Below the pieces are notes generated by a model, which was given only the letters and a program-made list of their open reading frames with translations, ran no database searches and was not told the DNA's origin. A stretch of DNA of 7,392 nt. Origin: Candidatus Wukongarchaeum yapensis (lineage in GTDB: Archaea; Asgardarchaeota; Wukongarchaeia; Wukongarchaeales; Wukongarchaeaceae). The translations under genes and the position numbers were made by a program. This document shows, one piece after another, positions 1-7,104 of the stretch (positions within the stretch are counted from its first letter, which is position 1; the number at the start of each line of letters is the position of its first letter). The DNA is taken from positions 1-7,392 of the forward strand of contig JAEOSI010000114.1 in the NCBI GenBank assembly GCA_016840425.1, in the 5' to 3' direction.

Positions 1-701
1 TCGAACTCTTCTTTTGAAGTGTTCGACTTTGTTTCGATGTCTTTTATGTTATTTCGTGACCGTTTTCTTGTTGGCGGTTTGTAGGATTTCAATGCTTTTT
101 CTATTTCGGGTATTAGGGGGTTTGTGTCGCCTAAACTGTTGTCTATGAGGATGAGTTTTTGGTTTAGATGGTCGTATGTGAGAACTGTTGTTTGCATAGC
201 TTGTATAGCGTCTGGTGTTTCATGATTTGGGCGGTATCCTACCCATGGAGCAACTATATCGTAGCCTAAGTAGCCGAGGTAACCGCCGAAAAAGACTTGT
301 CTTGGGAAAAATTCTGGTCTTTGTGTGTTGGATTTCGGGAAATATTTTTCAAGGAGGTCTAAGGCTTTTATATCGTATTTTACGCGGTCATCAACCCTAT
401 CCTTCACCTTTACTTGGTTATTTTTTGTTTCTTTTGTGGCTTCTATGTGTTGGAGGATCTTCTCTCCCCTTGCAGTTGTCATGTTTGTGATCTTTACTTG
501 AGTGTTTTTAATTTTGAGAAGATAGTCTGGTTCAAAGCAAATAAAGGAGTATTGGGGTTTTCTTGTTTCTTCGTGTACAGACTCTAGGAGGAAGGAACAG
601 CTTGGTTCAAGTTTTTCGACCAAGTGTTTGTATAGGTAGAAAGCTTCATAACCCCCGCCTAAGAGAGTTGCATTTTGTTGAAATTTTAAGGATTGCTTCA
701 T
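1..701 (-). CDS. trpE: Anthranilate synthase component I, N-terminal part (runs off the left edge of the window)
   Basis: Not in the ORF track; translated by hand. ATG at 701-699 lies 1 nt after the trpA stop, with GGAGG upstream inside the trpA end, and the frame is open to base 1: MKQSLKFQQNATLLGGGYEAFYLYKHLVEKLEPSCSFLLESVHEETRKPQYSFICFEPD...FFGGYLGYLGYDIVAPW...PDAIQAMQTTVLTYDHLNQKL...SNTSKEEFE. The LLES, YSFI, GGYLGYLGYD, YDH and SNxxKEEF motifs are typical of TrpE, and the operon context fits. Confidence 0.93.
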   Translation of the reverse strand, partial: MKQSLKFQQNATLLGGGYEAFYLYKHLVEKLEPSCSFLLESVHEETRKPQYSFICFEPDYLLKIKNTQVKITNMTTARGEKILQHIEATKETKNNQVKVKDRVDDRVKYDIKALDLLEKYFPKSNTQRPEFFPRQVFFGGYLGYLGYDIVAPWVGYRPNHETPDAIQAMQTTVLTYDHLNQKLILIDNSLGDTNPLIPEIEKALKSYKPPTRKRSRNNIKDIETKSNTSKEEF

Positions 702-702
702 T

Positions 703-1521
703 TTATTTCGTCGCCTCCTTCATTTCAGCAGCGTAAAGTTTTACTTTTTCAAGGACACCGTTTTTAAGTTCTCCATATTTTGAAATGATATCTACTATTG
801 CGGATCCTACGATAACGCCATCTGCTCCCGCCCTTACCACCTCTAAAACATGTTCAGGTTTTGATATTCCAAACCCAACACAACAGGGAACCGTGCCTTT
901 TGCGCGTTTTGTGATTCTTTTAATCGTTTTTTTAGTGATTTCTTGGAGGGATTTCCGGGCGCCAGTTGTGCCGTATAAGCTGACCACGTAGAGAAAACCG
1001 TCCGCCTTTTCAAGCACTATGTTTAGCCTGCGGTCGGAAGTTGAGGGAGCCACTATGAAGATAAGGTTGATGTTTTTGCTTTTTGCAGCTTTGAAGGCGG
1101 GTTCTGCTTCTTCTACTGGTAGATCTGCAATGATTACCCCGTCAACGCCTGAGAGAGAGCAGTCTTTAAAGAAATTTTTAACCCCTCTCTGAAGGACGAT
1201 GTTATAGTAAGTTAAGAATACAAGCGGGGTTTTTCCAGCAATTTTACGGATTTTTTTTGCAAGTTCGAAGGCTTTATCTGTGTTCATTCCTTGTGAAAGG
1301 GCTCTGGTAGTGGAGGCTTGGATGGTTGGACCATCTGCTACCGGGTCGCTGAAAGGTATTCCAAGCTCGATGATGTCTGCTCCTCCTTCGATGAGTGCTT
1401 TTGCTATTTTAACTGAGAATGAGGGAGCCGGGTCTCCGAGGGTGATGAAAGGTATGAAGGCGGCCTCATTCTTCTCTTTTAAGGCTTCAAATGTTTGTTT
1501 TATTCTTTCAACCATGGTCAT
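703..1521 (-). CDS. trpA: Tryptophan synthase alpha subunit
   Basis: Motifs IIELGIPFSDPVADGPTIQ (catalytic Glu/Asp), GVIIADLPVEE, GTTGAR, VGFGIS, GADGVIVGSAIV. Start moved from 1560 to ATG 1521: it sits 1 nt after the trpB stop with GAGGAG 10 nt upstream. ATG 1515 is an alternative. Confidence 0.97.
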   Translation of the reverse strand: MTMVERIKQTFEALKEKNEAAFIPFITLGDPAPSFSVKIAKALIEGGADIIELGIPFSDPVADGPTIQASTTRALSQGMNTDKAFELAKKIRKIAGKTPLVFLTYYNIVLQRGVKNFFKDCSLSGVDGVIIADLPVEEAEPAFKAAKSKNINLIFIVAPSTSDRRLNIVLEKADGFLYVVSLYGTTGARKSLQEITKKTIKRITKRAKGTVPCCVGFGISKPEHVLEVVRAGADGVIVGSAIVDIISKYGELKNGVLEKVKLYAAEMKEATK

Positions 1522-1522
1522 G

Positions 1523-2803
1523 TTATACACGCTCCTCGATGTCGAAATATTCTCGGACAATGTCTAGGTCTTTTGCCCCTGACCCGGAGAGAGTGATTAC
1601 TATTATGTCGTCTTGGTCAAATTTTTCCGCGATTTTTCTTGCATAAGCTATGGCATGAGAAGGTTCCAAAGCAGGAATTATTCCCTCCAACTTACAAACA
1701 AGTTTGAAGGCTTCTAGAGCTTCATCGTCTGTAGCTGTCTCTACTCTCAAGCGATGTATTTGTTTTAGGAAGGTGTGTTCTGGTCCAACCCCTGGGTAAT
1801 CAAGACCTGCACTAACGGAATGAGAATGTGAGATTTGCCCATATTTATCTTGGAGGAGAAGGGTGTAAGCTCCATGTAAGACTCCTTCGGTACCTGCTTT
1901 TAGTGAGGCTGAGTGGAGACCTGTGCTTAAACCTTTCCCACCTGCTTCTACGCCTATCAGCTCTACTTCTTCATCTTTAATGAAGTCATAGAAGGTCCCT
2001 ATAGCGTTACTTCCACCCCCAATACAAGCAAACAAGGCTGAGGGAAACCTTCCCTCTTTTTTAAGTATTTGTTCTTTTATTTCACGTCCAATAACCCTTT
2101 GAAACTCCCTTACAATGAGGGGGTAAGGATGGGGACCCACTACTGATCCTATGAGGTAGTAAGTGGTTTCAAGGTTGGTTATCCAGTCCCGTAAAGCTTC
2201 ATTTATTGCATCCTTCAAAGTTTTTGATCCGGAATATACTGGACAGACTTCTGCTCCGAGCAAACGCATCCTGTAGACGTTATGTTTTTGGCGTTTTACG
2301 TCTTCTAAACCCATATATATTTTTGTTTTGAAGCCGAATTTAGCGCCAACTATTGCTGTTGCAAACCCGTGTTGCCCTGCCCCAGTTTCAGCTATCAGCC
2401 GTGTTTTCCCCATGCTCCTTGCTAATAGGGCTTGACCTATAGTGTTGTTTAGTTTATGAGCGCCTCCATGAAGCAAATCTTCCCGTTTTAAATAGACTTT
2501 ACACCCAAATTCTTCGCTAAGCCTTTCAGCAAGATACAGGGGTGTTGGTCTCCCTGCAAAATCCCTCAAATGATAAGCTAACTCTTCTTGAAATTTTGGA
2601 GTCAGGTAGATCTTTTTGAAAGCTTCTTCCAGCTCTTCTAGCGCAGGCATAAGTATTTCTGGTACAAAACGTCCTCCAAACTCCCCAAACCTGCCCCTAA
2701 TATCGGGACAAGGATAGCTTAAATCAACCCCTGTCAGTTCTTCTTTTTTACCTTCATCAACACATGAAAAATTTTCATTGCTGTTCCTATTCTTATTTAC
2801 CAT
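1523..2803 (-). CDS. trpB: Tryptophan synthase beta subunit (TrpB1 type)
   Basis: [28 protein letters not shown] (PLP lysine), [37 protein letters not shown]. Strong RBS GGAGTGA 6 nt before the ATG. Confidence 0.98.
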
Positions 2804-2809
2804 GTTTTT

Positions 2810-3529
2810 TCACTCCTTTGCACTGTTTAGTTTAGCGTTTTTTACAAACTGTTTAATCAAGACTTCATCTTTGATTCCTGGCGCAGTCTCAACTCCTGAG
2901 GAGACATCAACAGCATAAGGTCTAACCTCCTTAACCGCTTGCCCAACATTTTGCGGGTTTAAGCCTCCTGCTAAAACTATGTGATTTCCTGTTTGGGAAA
3001 GCGTTTCACGGATAATCTTGCAAATTTTAAAGTTGTTTTCCACCCCTAAACCGCCAGAAAGTCCCCTTATTCCAGAATCGAGGAGGAGGAGGTCGCAATA
3101 TTTTGAGATTTTTAACGCTTCGCTTACATAAGTTTCTATCATGTTTTTATTAGGAGATAAGATGATGTCAATGGCTAGGGTAGCTATCAGTTTTGCTGAA
3201 ATCTCCCCCCTTAGCTTGTCTAACATTTCTAAAGAGTAGTTGCCGTGAATTTGAACAGCGGAAGGCTTTATTCTTTTGTCTACCTCAAAAACTTCCCTCT
3301 CTGAAGGGGGAACCATGACGACTACCGTGCTCTTGAAGGGGGGAACCCTTGAAAGCAATTCTTTTGCACGGTTTAACGGAACATTCCTTGGAGATCTTGG
3401 TACCCCTACAACACAACCAACCGCGTCTGCGCCAGAAATTATCACTGAATAAACATCCTTACTACGGGTTAGACCACAAATCTTAACCCGAGGAGGAGCA
3501 GAAGAAGAGGAAAAAAGTTGTCCCTTCAT
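2810..3529 (-). CDS. trpF: Phosphoribosylanthranilate isomerase
   Basis: VKICGLT, GADAVG, SPRNV, VQIHG, LLLDS, LAGGLNPQNV, PYAVDVSSGVE, PGIKD. ATGA overlap with the trpC stop. Confidence 0.96.
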   Translation of the reverse strand: MKGQLFSSSSAPPRVKICGLTRSKDVYSVIISGADAVGCVVGVPRSPRNVPLNRAKELLSRVPPFKSTVVVMVPPSEREVFEVDKRIKPSAVQIHGNYSLEMLDKLRGEISAKLIATLAIDIILSPNKNMIETYVSEALKISKYCDLLLLDSGIRGLSGGLGVENNFKICKIIRETLSQTGNHIVLAGGLNPQNVGQAVKEVRPYAVDVSSGVETAPGIKDEVLIKQFVKNAKLNSAKE

Positions 3530-4341
3530 CTTTTTCCCGCCTCCCGAAGCTCTTTAACCTTCTCCTTTGGAGAACTTGCCTCCATAATAGCTGAACCTAC
3601 TAACACAGCGTCAACTTCATGTTTTTTCAAGCGAATAACGTCTTTCCCTGAGGAGATGCCGCTTTCACTTACAATCAACACCTCCGAACCAAAAAGTTCA
3701 CGCACAAAGGACGCCAACTTCTCAGTAACACTAAGATCTGTTCGCAAAGTCCTGAGATCTCTGTTATTGATGCCAATTATTCGGGGTAAAACTCCTGCCT
3801 CTAGTATCTTTTCAAGGTCTTTTTCATCATGGACTTCAACTAAAGCCTCAATTCCGTAATCTGCGCTTAACTGTATTAACTCTGCTAGGGAGGCTGGTTT
3901 GTGGATTGTAGCGATTAAAAGTATCGCGTCAGCTCCTGCTTTTAAAGCTGCAAACACCTGTTTTCTATACAAAAAGAAATCTTTTGCAAGGACAGGTGTT
4001 TGGACAACATCTTTAACCGCCTTTAAAAGGGAAAGAGATCCGCCAAAATGTGAAGGTTCTGTAAGCACGCTAATACCCACGGCTCCCCCCTCAACTAATC
4101 GATGCGCCAAGCTTCCTCCATCCTTCACCTTTCGGAGCGCACCTTTGGAGGGGGATTTAGGCTTTATTTCCGCGATGATTGACACGCCTTTCTCGCTGCG
4201 AATAGCCTGATATAAGCTCTTTCTATGACCTGTGAGGTGTTTCTCTGACACGGCTTCAAATTCCAGATCTAGATGTTTGCTTTTTATCCTGTGTTTTACG
4301 TCTTCTAAAATCGTGTTTAAAACGTTGTTGGGCTGTTTCAA
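3526..4341 (-). CDS. trpC: Indole-3-glycerol phosphate synthase
   Basis: IIAEIKPKSPSKG, SVLTEPSHFGGS, KDF, GADAILLI, LVEVHD, GINNRDL, SESGI, VLVGSAIM. TTG start overlaps the trpD TGA (TTGA), with GGAGG 7 nt upstream. Confidence 0.96.
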   Translation of the reverse strand: MKQPNNVLNTILEDVKHRIKSKHLDLEFEAVSEKHLTGHRKSLYQAIRSEKGVSIIAEIKPKSPSKGALRKVKDGGSLAHRLVEGGAVGISVLTEPSHFGGSLSLLKAVKDVVQTPVLAKDFFLYRKQVFAALKAGADAILLIATIHKPASLAELIQLSADYGIEALVEVHDEKDLEKILEAGVLPRIIGINNRDLRTLRTDLSVTEKLASFVRELFGSEVLIVSESGISSGKDVIRLKKHEVDAVLVGSAIMEASSPKEKVKELREAGKR

Positions 4342-5426
4342 AGCTTTTCCTCCAATCTTTCAAGTTTTTCGATGTCTCCTCCCGATTCAATTATGAGTCG
4401 TCGAAGTTTCTCAAAGGCAGCACCGCTTTCCAACGACTCTTTCGCGATCTGAACCCCTTCAACGAAATCTTTAGCTTTTCCTGCAGCAGAAAGAGCGGCA
4501 GCAGCATTAGCCAGAACTATGTCTTCTTTTCGAGGTTCAAGCCCTTTAAGGATGCGAACAGCAACCAAAGCACTCTCAGAAACATCTTGACCCAATATAT
4601 CCTCCAAAACCCCATCTTTTAAGCCGAAATCTTTCGCTGAAACCTCATAGGTTCGAACAACGCCATCGTCAACCTCAGAAACCTTTGTGGCGCCTACGGT
4701 CGAGATCTCATCAAGGCCTATCAAACCATGAACAACATAACCAAAATTCACTCCAAGCCCTAAAAGAACCTTTGCAAGTTTTTCCGTTAATCCCAGATCA
4801 TAAACCCCAACAACTTGGGCTTTTGCCCCTGCAGGATTGGTCAAAGGTCCGAGGACATTGAAAACGGTGCGAATCCCGATCTCTCTTCGTGGTCCTATCA
4901 CATGCTTCATAGCAGGGTGAAATACGGGGGCAAACATGAAACCAATACCCGCCCGTTCAATACATTTATCTACAGTTTCAGGGCTTGCCGTTATGTTCAC
5001 CCCTAAAGCTTCAAGGAGGTCAGCGCTACCGCATTTACTTGTCACAGACCGATTGCCATGTTTCGCTACCGGAACACCTGTACCCGCAACAACGAGCGCT
5101 GAAATTGTCGACACATTAAACGTTTTCACGCTATCTCCACCAGTGCCACAAGTGTCCACAAGAACCCCCCTCACTCGGGGAGATATCCTGTGACAAAATT
5201 CCCGCATGACCCTAGCCATCGAAACAATCTCAGTAACAGTTTCACCCTTTAACCTCAAAGCCGTCAAGAAAGCTGCAATCTGAGCAGGACTAGCCGTATT
5301 CTCCATGATTAATCGCATAGCTCCAGCTGCACAATCCTCAGAAAGAGTTTCCCCTTCAACCACTAACCTTATTAAATGCCTAATATCTTGCGCCGAATTC
5401 TCACAAACAGAATCTAAAACCACCAT
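4338..5426 (-). CDS. trpD: Anthranilate phosphoribosyltransferase
   Basis: AQIAAFLTALRLKGET, DTCGTGGD, NVST, AKHGNRSVTSKCGSADLLEALG, FMFAPVFHPAMK, RTVFNVLGPLTNP, VVHG..GLDEIS. Start moved from TTG 5447 to ATG 5426, which has a GGTGTG RBS just upstream. Confidence 0.97.
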   Translation of the reverse strand: MVVLDSVCENSAQDIRHLIRLVVEGETLSEDCAAGAMRLIMENTASPAQIAAFLTALRLKGETVTEIVSMARVMREFCHRISPRVRGVLVDTCGTGGDSVKTFNVSTISALVVAGTGVPVAKHGNRSVTSKCGSADLLEALGVNITASPETVDKCIERAGIGFMFAPVFHPAMKHVIGPRREIGIRTVFNVLGPLTNPAGAKAQVVGVYDLGLTEKLAKVLLGLGVNFGYVVHGLIGLDEISTVGATKVSEVDDGVVRTYEVSAKDFGLKDGVLEDILGQDVSESALVAVRILKGLEPRKEDIVLANAAAALSAAGKAKDFVEGVQIAKESLESGAAFEKLRRLIIESGGDIEKLERLEEKL

Positions 5427-5449
5427 AAAAACACACCACACAAACAATC

Positions 5450-5523
5450 GTTAAAAATATGAAAATGAGCAAAAGAAAAGGAAAAACCTAGAACACTAAA
5501 AAGGTGGAGTTTTTATATCCACC
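5450..5523 (-). terminator. Putative attenuator/terminator: GGUGGA-9nt-UCCACC hairpin followed by U5 and a U-rich tract
   Basis: Minus strand reads GGTGGA TATAAAAAC TCCACC TTTTT (arms 5523-5518 and 5508-5503). U4-5 tracts lie at 5502-5498, 5486-5482, 5479-5476, 5474-5471, 5465-5462 and 5457-5453, all between the leader ORF and trpD. Confidence 0.55.
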
Positions 5524-5689
5524 ACCAAGAACGCCACAAAAAGAGAGAGGAAGATAGATAAAAACCGCTAGAATAAAGGCAATACTCACTAAGAGAGGTA
5601 GGTTTTGGAATTAGATCCTCCTCTCCCTGCTTTGAAAGAATTTTAAAAGAAAGTAGGAAGACATGTGGAGGTATCGCTAAGGAATTCAT
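5513..5689 (-). CDS. Putative trp operon leader peptide (trpL-like), 58 aa, ending LWRSWWWI
   Basis: ATG 5689 to TAA 5515-5513: MNSLAIPPHVFLLSFKILSKQGEEDLIPKPTSLSEYCLYSSGFYLSSSLFLWRSWWWI*. Four TGG codons among the last seven sense codons, three in tandem, ending 86 nt upstream of the trpD ATG. The true start is uncertain (ATG 5689; ATT 5611 after GGAGG; TTG 5539). Confidence 0.7.
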   Translation of the reverse strand: MNSLAIPPHVFLLSFKILSKQGEEDLIPKPTSLSEYCLYSSGFYLSSSLFLWRSWWWI

Positions 5690-5709
5690 GACAAAGAATC
5701 CGTTAGAAG

Positions 5710-5739
5710 TTATTTCCAGTCCAAACGATACACTTCCAT
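5710..5739 (-). other. Short upstream ORF MEVYRLDWK* with one Trp codon
   Basis: ATG GAA GTG TAT CGT TTG GAC TGG AAA TAA. First ATG downstream of the TATA box at 5782-5775. A short ORF like this can arise by chance. Confidence 0.35.
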
Positions 5740-5774: not shown

Positions 5775-5790
5775 TATTTAAATTTTACTA
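5775..5790 (-). promoter_or_regulatory. Putative archaeal promoter (BRE-like + TATA box) of the trp operon
   Basis: TTTAAATA at 5782-5775 on the minus strand, preceded by A-rich GTAAAA. It would place the transcription start near 5750, a short distance upstream of the first uORF. Confidence 0.5.
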
Positions 5791-5816: not shown

Positions 5817-6148
5817 GGAAGAAGCTGAAGAATGAAAAGCTAAAAACATTTCTTCCAAAGAAAATAGATGCACGTAAGGTTGAAGGAGAGACGCCATTTA
5901 CTTCCATTTTGACCTTGGATGAAGTTGTTTAAAATTGTAAGAAAAATAGAGGAATTGGAAAAAAGTATATGAGTTAGAAAACATATTGAAATTTCCGTTA
6001 AAATCCATTCCTGTTAATCACAAAATTAAGTCTTCGCTTTTGTTTTTTTGTTATTAGGGACTTCATGTTTTCTTTTTTGTTTTTTTTATTTTGAAAAGGG
6101 GGAGTGTGAATATTATTGTTTAGGATGTTATGTAAAACTCACCTTTTG

Positions 6149-6203: not shown

Positions 6204-6413
6204 ATGCAGTTGGTTACTGTTCATTTACCGGCAGAATTTATTGAAGGATTGGATTATTTGGTTCGAATAGAGAGGTATCCTAACCGTTCAGAAGCGATAA
6301 GGAACGCTGTTCGCGATCTACTAAAAGAAGAGTTATGGTCTCAACAACGTGTTATTAAAGAAAAAGAAAGAACAAGGCCCCAAATACCTTTAATAGAAGA
6401 AGAAAAAATTTGA
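6204..6413 (+). CDS. Ribbon-helix-helix (CopG/Arc/MetJ fold) transcriptional regulator, archaeal CdrS-like
   Basis: Alternating beta-strand LVTVHLP, helix AEFIEGLDYLV, then YPNRSEAIRNAVRDLL, the typical archaeal RHH pattern. Strong RBS. Confidence 0.9.
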   Translation: MQLVTVHLPAEFIEGLDYLVRIERYPNRSEAIRNAVRDLLKEELWSQQRVIKEKERTRPQIPLIEEEKI

Positions 6414-6618: not shown

Positions 6619-7104
6619 GTGAGTATTTACTTCTGTCCCTTTTGCGGTTCTGCCGTACAAGAAGGACATAATTTTTGTAAAAATTGCGGTGCTGACCTTT
6701 CAAAAAAGAGTAAAGTGACTAGAACTAGATTTAGGGGCAGTTTCTGGCTAGGAGCGTTCGTCGGCATAGTTATAATGATTATTGTTGGTAGAGCAGGAAA
6801 CGTTTTTCACGGTTTGCTTCTTGGGGCTTTTGTTGCGGGAATAGTTTCGGGAGACCCTGGAAAGGGAGCTTTGGCCGGAATTGTAGTTGATTTAACGCTT
6901 TTAGCCCTATTATTAGTAAGTCCTCCCAGCGACCTTATGGGCGATTATCAAGCGAGAGGTATAATAGAAGCTATAGTTGTCTCAGTGGTTTATGCTGTTG
7001 CTTACATTTTTCTCCTTATCCTTGTAATAATCTTTACAATACCTTGTGCGGTCATCGGGATTATAGGCGGAGCGATCGGCGAAAAAATATATCGAAGAGA
7101 GTAA
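6619..7104 (+). CDS. Zinc-ribbon domain membrane protein (N-terminal CxxC-x10-CxxC, about 3-4 Gly-rich TM helices; resembles archaeal DUF5518-like proteins)
   Basis: CPFCG...NFCKNCG, basic linker, then hydrophobic helices with GxxxG motifs (LGAFVG, GAFVAG, GIIGG). GTG start with GGGTGG RBS 7 nt upstream. The family name is from recall only. Confidence 0.8.
   Translation: MSIYFCPFCGSAVQEGHNFCKNCGADLSKKSKVTRTRFRGSFWLGAFVGIVIMIIVGRAGNVFHGLLLGAFVAGIVSGDPGKGALAGIVVDLTLLALLLVSPPSDLMGDYQARGIIEAIVVSVVYAVAYIFLLILVIIFTIPCAVIGIIGGAIGEKIYRRE

Follow-up and report, generated by a model that had tools for sequence, protein, structure and literature searches.

Leader-peptide attenuation is a textbook mechanism which so far has been tied to bacteria. 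Closest to the locus reported here are the bacterial trp attenuators, i.e., trpL of E. coli (RF00513) and the WWW-type trpL of actinobacteria and rhizobia. With these the locus shares a leader frame preceding the Trp genes, Trp codons that cluster at the leader stop, and a hairpin and U-tract located between this stop and the first structural gene, the peptide being otherwise unconstrained. To our knowledge, archaeal tryptophan control is known only via the DNA-binding proteins TrpY and Tar, and archaeal intrinsic termination is not known to require a hairpin. TrpY from Methanothermobacter and Tar (TK0271) from Thermococcus control the same pathway in archaea, both being DNA-binding proteins that act at the promoter (PMC6737238). 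Archaea terminate at U-tracts with aCPSF1/FttA (PMC8716108, PMC11616081), and the coupling of transcription and translation is established for archaea in general (PMC8116511, PMC11616081). A 2021 review of this coupling leaves attenuation unmentioned, and the report of the FttA structure left the interplay of the trailing ribosome with archaeal polymerase, U-tract terminators and FttA as a question. The first-pass annotation of the locus held leader-peptide attenuation not to be experimentally established in archaea, and a literature search likewise found no published archaeal leader-peptide attenuator.

The locus is the 5' leader of a trp operon, both being encoded on the minus strand of a 7,392-nt stretch of DNA (the window, i.e., the whole stretch that was analysed). 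This leader is probably a cis-acting tryptophan sensor, in which ribosome stalling would sense charged tRNA-Trp and termination at U-tracts would be the output. The operon trpDCFBAE (1 to 5426), assigned by Pfam, comprises trpD (5426-4338), trpC (4341-3526), trpF (3529-2810), trpB (2803-1523), trpA (1560-703) and the N-terminal part only of trpE (701 to the contig end), a gene order found in other Asgard genomes too. The assumption of an archaeal contig was borne out: among SSU models the archaeal one scores best for the genome, and the closest TrpD relatives belong to MAGs named Hodarchaeota or Asgard, which have their synteny in common with the window. The nearest named relative of the genome is a Candidatus Hodarchaeota MAG. 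A TrpD scan of JGI metagenomes revealed no close relatives (best identity 61-65%). The organism occurs at marine-sediment, mangrove or marsh sites. The window stretch is contained in 20 DNA sequencing runs, the search having listed no RNA run, and strain variation was read from the contigs of four environmental runs among these. The genome further encodes a 637-aa beta-CASP frame, and its TrpB2-like gene (contig C201) was found to be without a Trp leader. Elsewhere in the window, a divergent RHH gene (6204-6413) shows synteny limited to the genus-level group of the window, and an insertion of 192 nt at about 5830-6021, considered as a repeat family, was rejected as such, being single copy.

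Upstream of the leader, pattern matching identified the archaeal TATA-box consensus TTTAAATA at 5775-5782, which is identical in the sister lineages G001 and SMTZ1. A TATA box was also found at the equivalent place before the leaders of G010, G316, G150, G149 and G148 and before the Loki-type leaders, i.e., those located upstream of trpD in Lokiarchaeia-like genomes. Given the customary distance between TATA box and start, the transcript is predicted to begin at ~5753-5750. Next follows a mini-ORF, uORF1 (5710-5739), which encodes MEVYRLDWK, contains one TGG (5718-5716) and is preceded by an SD-like AGGA at a distance of 10-13 nt. It is out of frame relative to the Trp-tailed frame described below and differs by 0-1 positions per 30 nt among three lineages, with no variant in the four environmental runs. 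uORF1 overlaps a conserved 5' element, GTATCG..TTTGGACTGGAA, which recurs in G010, G316, G150, G149 and G148, and part of which is predicted by a three-lineage consensus fold to form a helix P1 (GUAUCG, 5731-5726, with CGAUAC, 5676-5671; 5671-5731). P1-equivalent helices were identified in G010 (GGGUAUCGA/UCGAUACCC) and G316 (GGGGUAU/GUACCCC). A -1 frameshift from uORF1 into the Trp frame was rejected upon inspection, as there is no slippery site.

The Trp-tailed frame itself is stop-free from a conserved GGA (5722-5720) to the TAA at 5515-5513, yielding 69 sense codons that end in LWRSWWWI (5513-5722). Within it resides the 58-codon ORF (5689-5513, with its ATG at 5689-5687) that had initially been described upstream of trpD; its frame and coordinates are correct, but it is not a conserved unit, as ATG 5689 is replaced by ATA in two of the four environmental populations and by GAG in two sister lineages. 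None of the frame's canonical start codons is conserved among the environmental populations, G001 and SMTZ1. Candidate starts besides this polymorphic ATG are CTG 5719-5717 and ATT 5611-5609, the latter located immediately 3' of a purine-rich GGAGGA; TTG 5539 was rejected as a start, since it reads TTA in SMTZ1. In the frames compared, CTG and canonical starts appeared mutually exclusive. What is conserved in six lineages is a stop-free frame of 38-69 codons leading from the 5' element to the Trp tail and always kept in register with this element. The window's frame is open for 108 codons versus a shuffle median of 22 (P=0.001), and in the six long-type lineages 38-108 stop-free codons compare with a shuffle median of ~20 (P 0.001-0.09 each). 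The peptide, on the other hand, lacks conservation: relative to G001, 18 of 59 residues are different, and substitutions distribute 7:12:6 over the codon positions. A Pfam search with the 58-aa peptide gave no match. Population variants in the Trp frame are synonymous and non-synonymous at 5:5, which is equal in another frame and hence does not single out the Trp frame. Three-lineage folding further predicts a long helix P2 (5537-5634), formed between a purine tract (~5634-5615) and a pyrimidine tract (5555-5537) that abuts the first Trp codon. One P2 pair is changed on both sides (A-U to G-C) and several on one side, a second both-side change is found in the small hairpin enclosed by P2, and covariation support for P2 is weak because just three lineages were at hand. 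Overall, folding of the leader does not surpass that of its shuffles (z about 0).

At its 3' end the frame carries a cluster of cognate codons (5519-5536), with four TGG among the last seven sense codons; their minus-strand positions (TGG 5536-5534 and TGG TGG TGG 5527-5519) were correctly given in the first-pass annotation. Its own test, i.e., whether the in-frame cluster is kept in relatives, came out in favour of the feature, which is retained in the sister lineages and was found in eight Asgard families. Both G001 and SMTZ1 retain WWW; in G001 the first W is TTG. The Trp cluster together with the hairpin core and flanking T5 tracts persists in both sister lineages and is invariant in the four environmental populations, where 5427-5548 contains no variants as compared to ten in the frame body (5549-5687). 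In the 2.16-Mb genome, TGGTGGTGG occurs 33 times on both strands, and 23 intergenic frames possess at least three W in their last 12 residues, of which only that of the window adjoins a trp gene. The suggestion that other amino-acid operons of this genome might carry cognate-codon leaders found no support, as a crude scan of it for His, Cys, Met, Thr, Pro, Arg, Gln, Tyr, Gly, Glu, Asp, Ala and Val leaders gave none beside an obvious biosynthetic gene.

The WWW codons form the 5' arm of a hairpin (5503-5523) that consists of GGUGGA (5523-5518), a 9-nt loop (5517-5509) and UCCACC (5508-5503), with a folding energy of -8.4 kcal/mol; the leader stop TAA (5515-5513) is located inside its loop, just as had been proposed. 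Three lineages retain the 5-bp core GGUGG/CCACC, the closing A-U pair being lost in SMTZ1. Taken alone, the window's hairpin does not outperform controls with shuffled tails (p=0.24), and the covariation proposed as a check was not seen, the three-lineage consensus fold giving no compensatory change in support of the stop-enclosing hairpin. A bacterial-type promoter and terminator scan called no terminator; the window hairpin was passed over because its 9-nt loop exceeds the limit of 8. Six T4-5 tracts follow the hairpin, as noted before, and constitute candidate archaeal termination signals (5453-5502; runs at 5502-5498, 5486-5482, 5479-5476, 5474-5471, 5465-5462 and 5457-5453), the 120 nt 3' of the leader stop being 52% T and 15% A. 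The first and the last T5 are kept in relatives, while those in the middle vary and are not retained in SMTZ1. Gene ends of this genome are marked by T5+ tracts, which occur within 60 nt after 44% of long ORFs versus 12% inside genes. The competing helix invoked to mask the U-tracts (AAAAACU, 5514-5508, with GGUUUUU, 5488-5482, and inner CAC/GUG) exists as a pairing but is very weak, amounting to just -2.1 kcal/mol. Constrained folding with a ribosome placed on WWW revealed no stable alternative and thus no mutually exclusive antiterminator; a two-state scheme of hairpin or ribosome may apply. The window leader is located close to trpD (87 nt). Around the trpD RBS (GGTG, 5437-5434) and ATG (5426-5424), a block of 43 nt (5403-5445) shows no change in three lineages, not even at the synonymous sites of trpD codons 1-8. 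The position of the trpD SD matches the genome-wide peak and the genome is without a leaderless-type TATA peak, hence trpD is most likely expressed from a leadered transcript.

Beyond the window's own lineage, a Trp-tailed frame (at least three W in the last 12 codons) was found on the sense strand within ~700 nt upstream in 29 of 40 trpD-first Asgard operons, these 29 loci covering eight of ten Asgard families. The upstream sense strand gave 30 hits in 30 kb and the antisense strand none versus ~1 expected, and with background densities of 0.025 per kb in the remainder of these loci and 0.043 per kb across the genome, such frames are enriched ~25-40 times before trpD. The leader tails are diverse (e.g., MTTELRYFWRWQWPWRA, TTWFCWLFWYW and LEWPWCWRN, each followed by the stop) and the UGG spacing amounts to 3, 6, 9, 12 or 18 nt, in frame each time; in the 48 nt before the stop, 121 TGG are in frame as compared to 3 and 5 in the other frames. 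Judged by this sequence pattern, the UGGs of the Asgard leaders behave as codons. RNAalifold gave no consensus for 21 Loki-type stop regions because the MAFFT alignment misaligns their 3' arms, and recurrence of the stop hairpin was consequently tested by per-sequence folding with tail shuffles, which revealed stop-enclosing hairpins in 31 Asgard leaders, their arms differing in sequence (Fisher p=1.6e-7, with related leaders not being independent). T-runs amount to 3.1 per 120 nt 3' of the leaders versus 1.5 upstream. The window leader shows this pattern in full, i.e., a sense frame with at least three W in 12 codons before a trp gene, a hairpin-enclosed stop and T-runs downstream. Asgard operons beginning with trpE possess no Trp-codon leader, and TrpD loci of non-Asgard archaea show no sense enrichment (18 versus 16 antisense), a comparison which is not a strict test because most operons there do not begin with trpD. 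Loki-type leaders resemble the window in their Trp-rich frame end, hairpin-enclosed stop, downstream T-runs and place before trp genes after a TATA box. They are ATG-started ORFs of 16-28 codons that show a W-x-W-x-W pattern besides other conserved elements (CAWTGG, TTGAWTTCCAAT), whereas the window type comprises a long frame starting from a different conserved 5' element, the tandem WWW, an additional out-of-frame mini-ORF and a location close to trpD. The window thereby adds a second, structurally distinct architecture from a Hodarchaeota-type lineage, in which the frame is long, the WWW codons stand in tandem and U5 comes immediately after the hairpin.

Anatomy, conservation, frame constraint and the exclusive association with trp operons are observed; translation of the Trp frame, stalling and a termination output we infer. 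The recurrence of this layout before trpD in eight Asgard families makes it a strong candidate for archaeal amino-acid sensing by the ribosome in the bacterial style. The suggested mechanism assumes that transcription begins ~25 nt 3' of the TATA box at 5782-5775 and that a ribosome would translate a frame of ~68 codons, the sequence of which is free to vary as long as it stays open, up to its end W-R-S-W-W-W-I-stop. When charged tRNA-Trp is scarce, the ribosome would stall on the UGG codons and hence on the 5' arm of the hairpin, 17-30 nt behind the first U5. Here it would prevent hairpin formation and sit directly behind the polymerase at the first U-tract, so that termination, intrinsic or FttA-assisted, would be disfavoured and trpDCFBAE transcribed. 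When Trp is plentiful, the ribosome would reach the stop in the loop and depart, thereby exposing the hairpin and naked U-rich RNA, whereupon the polymerase would terminate inside the U-tract cluster. Termination at the U-tracts may thus constitute the output step, whether FttA takes part or not. A ribosome stalled on WWW would shield just the first one to three U-tracts, and read-through at the distal tracts is therefore left unexplained. As a tentative and rather speculative extension, for the lineage which its depositors named Hodarchaeota, the ~68-codon leader with its non-AUG start (possibly CUG) would solely keep the ribosome directly behind the polymerase throughout the structured leader; stalling on WWW against a polymerase paused at the first U-tract would then sterically exclude FttA/Spt5 and the hairpin, with ribosome-polymerase contact taking the place of an antiterminator RNA. 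Phylogenomic work reportedly placed Hodarchaeota close to eukaryotes.

The invariant block at the trpD start is a hint that regulation might instead act on translation initiation. With the ribosome-based Trp sensor left unchanged, the output could be trpD translation initiation or mRNA stability via leader refolding, the T-rich stretch being merely spacer or promoter-like DNA. This reading, which we consider rather unlikely, draws on the invariance of the SD/ATG region down to its synonymous sites, on the hairpin 3' arm CCACC, for which GGUGG at the trpD start or SD is an alternative pairing partner, on a small helix over the trpD AUG predicted by the consensus fold, and on the several conserved leader helices (P1 and P2). 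In addition, a mycobacterial polycysteine uORF attenuator reportedly works without a terminator (bioRxiv 10.1101/834739). Simple pairing, however, gives the wrong sign, as a stall on WWW would free CCACC and mask the trpD start at low Trp. Moreover, duplexes between the invariant start block and the leader were inconsistent across lineages, with no conserved long-range duplex found, and the T-run enrichment after leaders is general. The arrangement would be without regulatory function if trpD had its own promoter within the T-rich stretch and the Trp-tailed frame were a chance occurrence or a separate small gene. In favour, a TATA-like TTTTTAAC at 5457-5450 is conserved and lies ~31 nt upstream of the ATG, a spacing that suits a leaderless start; against this stand the recurrence in eight families at ~25-40 times background, the in-frame constraint, the canonical trpD SD at its genome-typical position in a genome without a leaderless signature, and a peptide that shows neither protein-level selection nor a Pfam match, which together render such a promoter very improbable.

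Two further explanations retain a Trp signal but change what senses it. A nascent Trp-rich peptide could sense free tryptophan in the ribosome tunnel and arrest at or near the stop like TnaC, tRNA charging not being sensed. The patterned C-terminal residues of many leaders (W-x-W-x-W-R-A/Q-stop) and the location of the stop inside the hairpin loop, a place at which ribosome arrest would have consequences, are in line with this idea. However, one Trp suffices there rather than three to six, the tails differ widely among families (WWWI, WFCWLFWYW, WPWCWRN) and dense cognate codons are the hallmark of charging sensors, so that we give this explanation little credence. About as improbable as the separate promoter is a role of the UGG repeats as the untranslated binding site of a Trp-activated RNA-binding protein, analogous to TRAP. 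The regular 6-nt UGG period in many Loki-type leaders recalls the TRAP triplet repeats, but the spacing varies (3 to 18 nt) and yet is always a multiple of three, the repeats always reside in a stop-free frame ending 1-3 codons later, frames of the short type have an ATG 8-20 codons upstream, and no partner protein is syntenic across families. TRAP-type sites would call for a fixed 2-3-nt spacing, independence from the reading frame and a TRAP-like protein.

If the preferred reading of a charging-sensing leader with termination output holds true, archaea, too, would control amino-acid operons by ribosomal sensing. The locus would then provide a natural and compact test case for the trailing ribosome versus archaeal RNA polymerase, U-tract terminators and FttA, as well as a ready-made Trp-responsive regulatory part for archaeal genetics. 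Among described systems, the proposed shielding from FttA comes near to TnaC/Rho of the E. coli tna operon and to the Rho-dependent leader attenuators of the mgtA and corA type, in which the position of a ribosome on a short ORF gates factor access. TnaC, however, senses free Trp and induces a catabolic operon, whereas the window leader carries a cognate-codon cluster, and the factor of the Rho-dependent leaders is Rho as opposed to the beta-CASP nuclease FttA. Unlike for TrpY and Tar, nothing in the window leader requires a protein sensor. A search of the whole window against all Rfam families (E<=1) gave no match, the bacterial Trp_leader RF00513 included. As compared to bacterial trpL, the window leader belongs to the archaeal domain with a TATA-box promoter and archaeal polymerase, and possesses a frame of ~68 codons without a conserved AUG, against 14-30 codons. 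It shows no convincing 2:3 antiterminator or 1:2 pause hairpin and carries six successive U-tracts against one. In place of the hairpin-driven release of the bacterial attenuators it would employ archaeal termination via U-tracts and FttA.

A Trp-tailed frame was found to precede nearly every Asgard operon starting with trpD. TrpD is present in 65 of 400 Asgard genomes, and the 3.3 kb upstream of each was examined for frames with several Trp among the last 12 residues, whereby at least three W served as count threshold. At this threshold, 29 of 40 trpD-first loci, kin among which are not independent, are positive on the sense strand (30 hits in 30 kb), as opposed to no hit in the antisense reading of the same upstream regions and to background rates of 0.025 per kb in the rest of the same loci and 0.043 per kb in the window's genome. 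The positive loci span eight of the ten families having trpD-first operons, and the tails, which are wholly different in sequence between families, comprise MTTAKNFVWRWQWSWWRWQ, MATEKIILFRWQWLWRA, MFRKNLNLKVPSSTWFWVWCWHA, FWFWWAWRL, FFWSWSWHY, TTWFCWLFWYW (Sifarchaeum) and LEWPWCWRN (Helarchaeota), each followed by the stop. Nothing comparable was found upstream of trpE in trpE-first Asgard operons, and 159 mostly non-Asgard archaeal TrpD loci revealed no sense-strand excess of Trp-tailed frames. The Loki-type leaders (loci L120-L143) share further conserved elements 20-190 nt past the leader stop, namely a CAWTGG, by whose pairing with the CAGTGG codons an outer stem arises, an ACACAT-N5-ATGTGT palindrome and a hairpin, TTGAWTTCCAAT, whose arms covary; several Loki-type genomes possess an ORF of about 95 aa between leader and trpD.

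The window is the entire 7392-bp contig C106 of a 2.16-Mb metagenome-assembled genome (92% complete, 3.3% contamination), whose minus strand carries trpD (ATG at 5426), trpC, trpF, trpB, trpA and the start of trpE as identified by Pfam, preceded by about 780 nt devoid of long ORFs. A bacterial origin of the contig, which the first-pass annotation had named as fatal to its proposal of an archaeal Trp-codon attenuator, does not hold true: the SSU rRNA of the genome matches best to an archaeal model, the nearest TrpD (92% identity) is that of a same-genus Candidatus Hodarchaeota archaeon, further members of the TrpD protein clusters at 90% and 87% bear the name Hodarchaeota or 'Asgard group archaeon', the order trpD-C-F-B-A-E recurs in numerous Asgard genomes, Sifarchaeum and Helarchaeota included, and pattern matching identified a consensus archaeal TATA box (TTTAAATA, 5782-5775, minus strand). 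Upstream of the leader, and divergent from it, the plus strand encodes an RHH_1/CopG-family (ribbon-helix-helix) protein of 69 aa (6204-6413) and a zinc-ribbon/DUF5518 membrane protein (6619-7104), a synteny shared with the same-genus sister lineage G001 and with contigs of the SMTZ1 type (a second sister lineage) and not found beside trpD in other Asgard families. A stretch of 192 nt (approximately 5830-6021), single-copy in the window's genome and missing from G001, contains neither a repeat nor an ORF of note. The same genome holds a second TrpD paralogue (38% identity; C178:13647-14687, plus strand) and a TrpB2-like gene (C201:12402-13782, minus strand), the latter without a Trp leader.

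The Trp tail resides where it had been placed by the first-pass annotation, i.e., the ATG 5689 frame ends with L-W-R-S-W-W-W-I-TAA (TGG at 5536-5534 and 5527-5519), and so do the GGUGGA (5523-5518)/UCCACC (5508-5503) hairpin, which encloses the stop within its 9-nt loop (-8.4 kcal/mol), and the six T4-5 runs downstream of it (5502 to 5453). The competing helix that was suggested to mask the first of these runs is present but worth just -2.1 kcal/mol, and the 58-codon ORF from ATG 5689 is not a conserved unit, as ATA replaces this codon in two of four public DNA runs and both sister lineages have GAG there. Three lineages of the genus-level group are alignable: the window's own (G000), G001 (TrpD 92% identical) and the SMTZ1/ERZ/Ga0209427 contigs (TrpD 87% identical). 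As the attenuator proposal demanded, W-W-W is kept in frame in all of them, and they likewise share the stop, the hairpin core GGUGG/CCACC and, of the T5 tracts, the first and the last. Differences concern the first Trp codon of the cluster (TTG in G001), TTG 5539 (TTA in SMTZ1), the A-U pair closing the hairpin (absent in SMTZ1) and the middle T-tracts, which differ among the three. Contigs of the four DNA runs, coming from different studies, vary at 14 positions, ten of them within the frame body (5549-5687) and none within 5427-5548 (Trp cluster, hairpin, T-tracts and SD) or within an out-of-frame mini-ORF (5739-5710). Compared with G001, 18 of 59 leader peptide residues are changed, with substitutions distributed 7:12:6 over the codon positions; the peptide sequence is, as judged by this alignment, unconstrained, and an open frame with drifting residues is what is expected for a regulatory leader ORF.

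Throughout the Asgard leaders the UGGs are spaced by 3, 6, 9, 12 or 18 nt and always lie in a single frame, and this frame stops one to three codons after the cluster. Within the last 48 nt before the stop, 121 TGG are in frame as compared to three and five in the other frames; although in-frame Trp count was the basis on which the leaders were chosen, the scarcity of TGG out of frame remains informative. In leaders of the short type, an ATG precedes the cluster by 8-20 codons. Across the six lineages of the long type (the window's group and the Asgard genomes G010, G316, G150, G149 and G148) the frame is stop-free over 38-108 codons, the shuffle median being about 20, and crosses a conserved 5' element, GTATCG..TTTGGAYY, always in the same register. 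Where a canonical in-frame start is lacking (the window's group, G150 and G149), CTG directly follows the conserved GGA; it is absent from G010 and G316, which possess an in-frame ATG and GTG, respectively. This pattern suggests CUG at 5719-5717 as a candidate start codon of the window's frame. The mini-ORF (5710-5739, minus strand; MEVYRLDWK, with an SD-like AGGA) is identical in the three lineages save one synonymous change and overlaps the GTATCG..TTTGGACTGG element common to distant Asgard leaders; since its reading frame differs between lineages, the element is conserved at the RNA or DNA level.

Stop-enclosing hairpins recur with dissimilar arms (GGCGCG/CGCGCU, GGCACGC/GCGUGC, GGCGUUG/UAACGCC, GCGCC/GGCGC, GGUGA/UCACC and GGUGGA/UCCACC), and against the shuffled 24 nt after the stop eight of 31 are individually significant (combined p=1.6e-7), the window's hairpin alone not being so (p=0.24). 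The three-lineage consensus fold predicts a 5' helix P1 (GUAUCG/CGAUAC), which has counterparts in G010 and G316, and a long purine/pyrimidine helix P2 ending at the first Trp codon; two pairs of the whole fold are changed on both sides, and the entire leader is no more stable than shuffled sequences. T4+ runs follow the leader stops with a mean of 3.1 per 120 nt, as compared to 1.5 upstream and 1.25 for same-strand A-runs, whereby the window is the extreme case (8 runs, 52% T). In its genome a T5+ run occurs within 60 nt past the stop of 44% of long ORFs versus 12% inside genes, which fits the U-tract termination described for archaea (PMC8716108). Dense T-tract clusters (at least six runs of T4+ within 60 nt) were counted at 202 places genome-wide, and a putative beta-CASP frame of 637 aa, the size expected for aCPSF1/FttA, locates to C174:2639-3013 (plus strand).

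The leader is probably a ribosome-based Trp sensor controlling the trp operon, and best supported is a translated leader which would report tRNA-Trp charging by halting ribosomes at the clustered UGG codons. Stalled with WWW in the A site, a ribosome would cover the hairpin's loop together with its 5' arm and would reside less than about 30 nt from a polymerase positioned at the first U5, so that it could block hairpin formation and FttA access alike; steric exclusion of FttA by coupled ribosomes was proposed in the FttA structure paper. A ribosome which reaches the stop and departs would expose the hairpin and U-rich untranslated RNA, giving six chances for termination. Speaking against the Trp sensor, the Trp-tailed frame has no conserved start codon, no credible antiterminator was identified and the distal U-tracts are out of reach of the stalled ribosome's shielding. 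Given such a sensor, the case for U-tract termination as its output is about evenly balanced.

Instead, the output could lie at the level of translation, as a 43-nt block comprising the trpD SD, ATG and codons 1-8 (5403-5445, minus strand) is invariant in the three lineages, even at synonymous sites; with 12-19% divergence in the neighbouring leader, the alignment implies constraint beyond coding. A separate leaderless trpD promoter within the T-rich stretch was considered as well. The trpD SD (GGTG at -11 to -8), however, coincides with the genome-wide peak, and a leaderless-type TATA peak was not found genome-wide in the window's genome, which argues against such a promoter. SD-like motifs, which peak at -15 to -11, precede 49% of the well-bounded ATG starts in this genome.

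No account of an archaeal leader-peptide attenuator came up in full-text literature searches, and archaeal Trp regulation was described as little known beyond TrpY (Tar paper, PMC6737238). The window's leader shows no homology to the Rfam Trp_leader, departs from a classical attenuator with respect to the antiterminator and represents an architecture distinct from that of the Loki-type leaders. Frame dependence sets leaders of this type apart from TRAP-type control and codon density from TnaC. Functionally, the window's leader resembles bacterial trpL attenuators, above all those of the WWW type.
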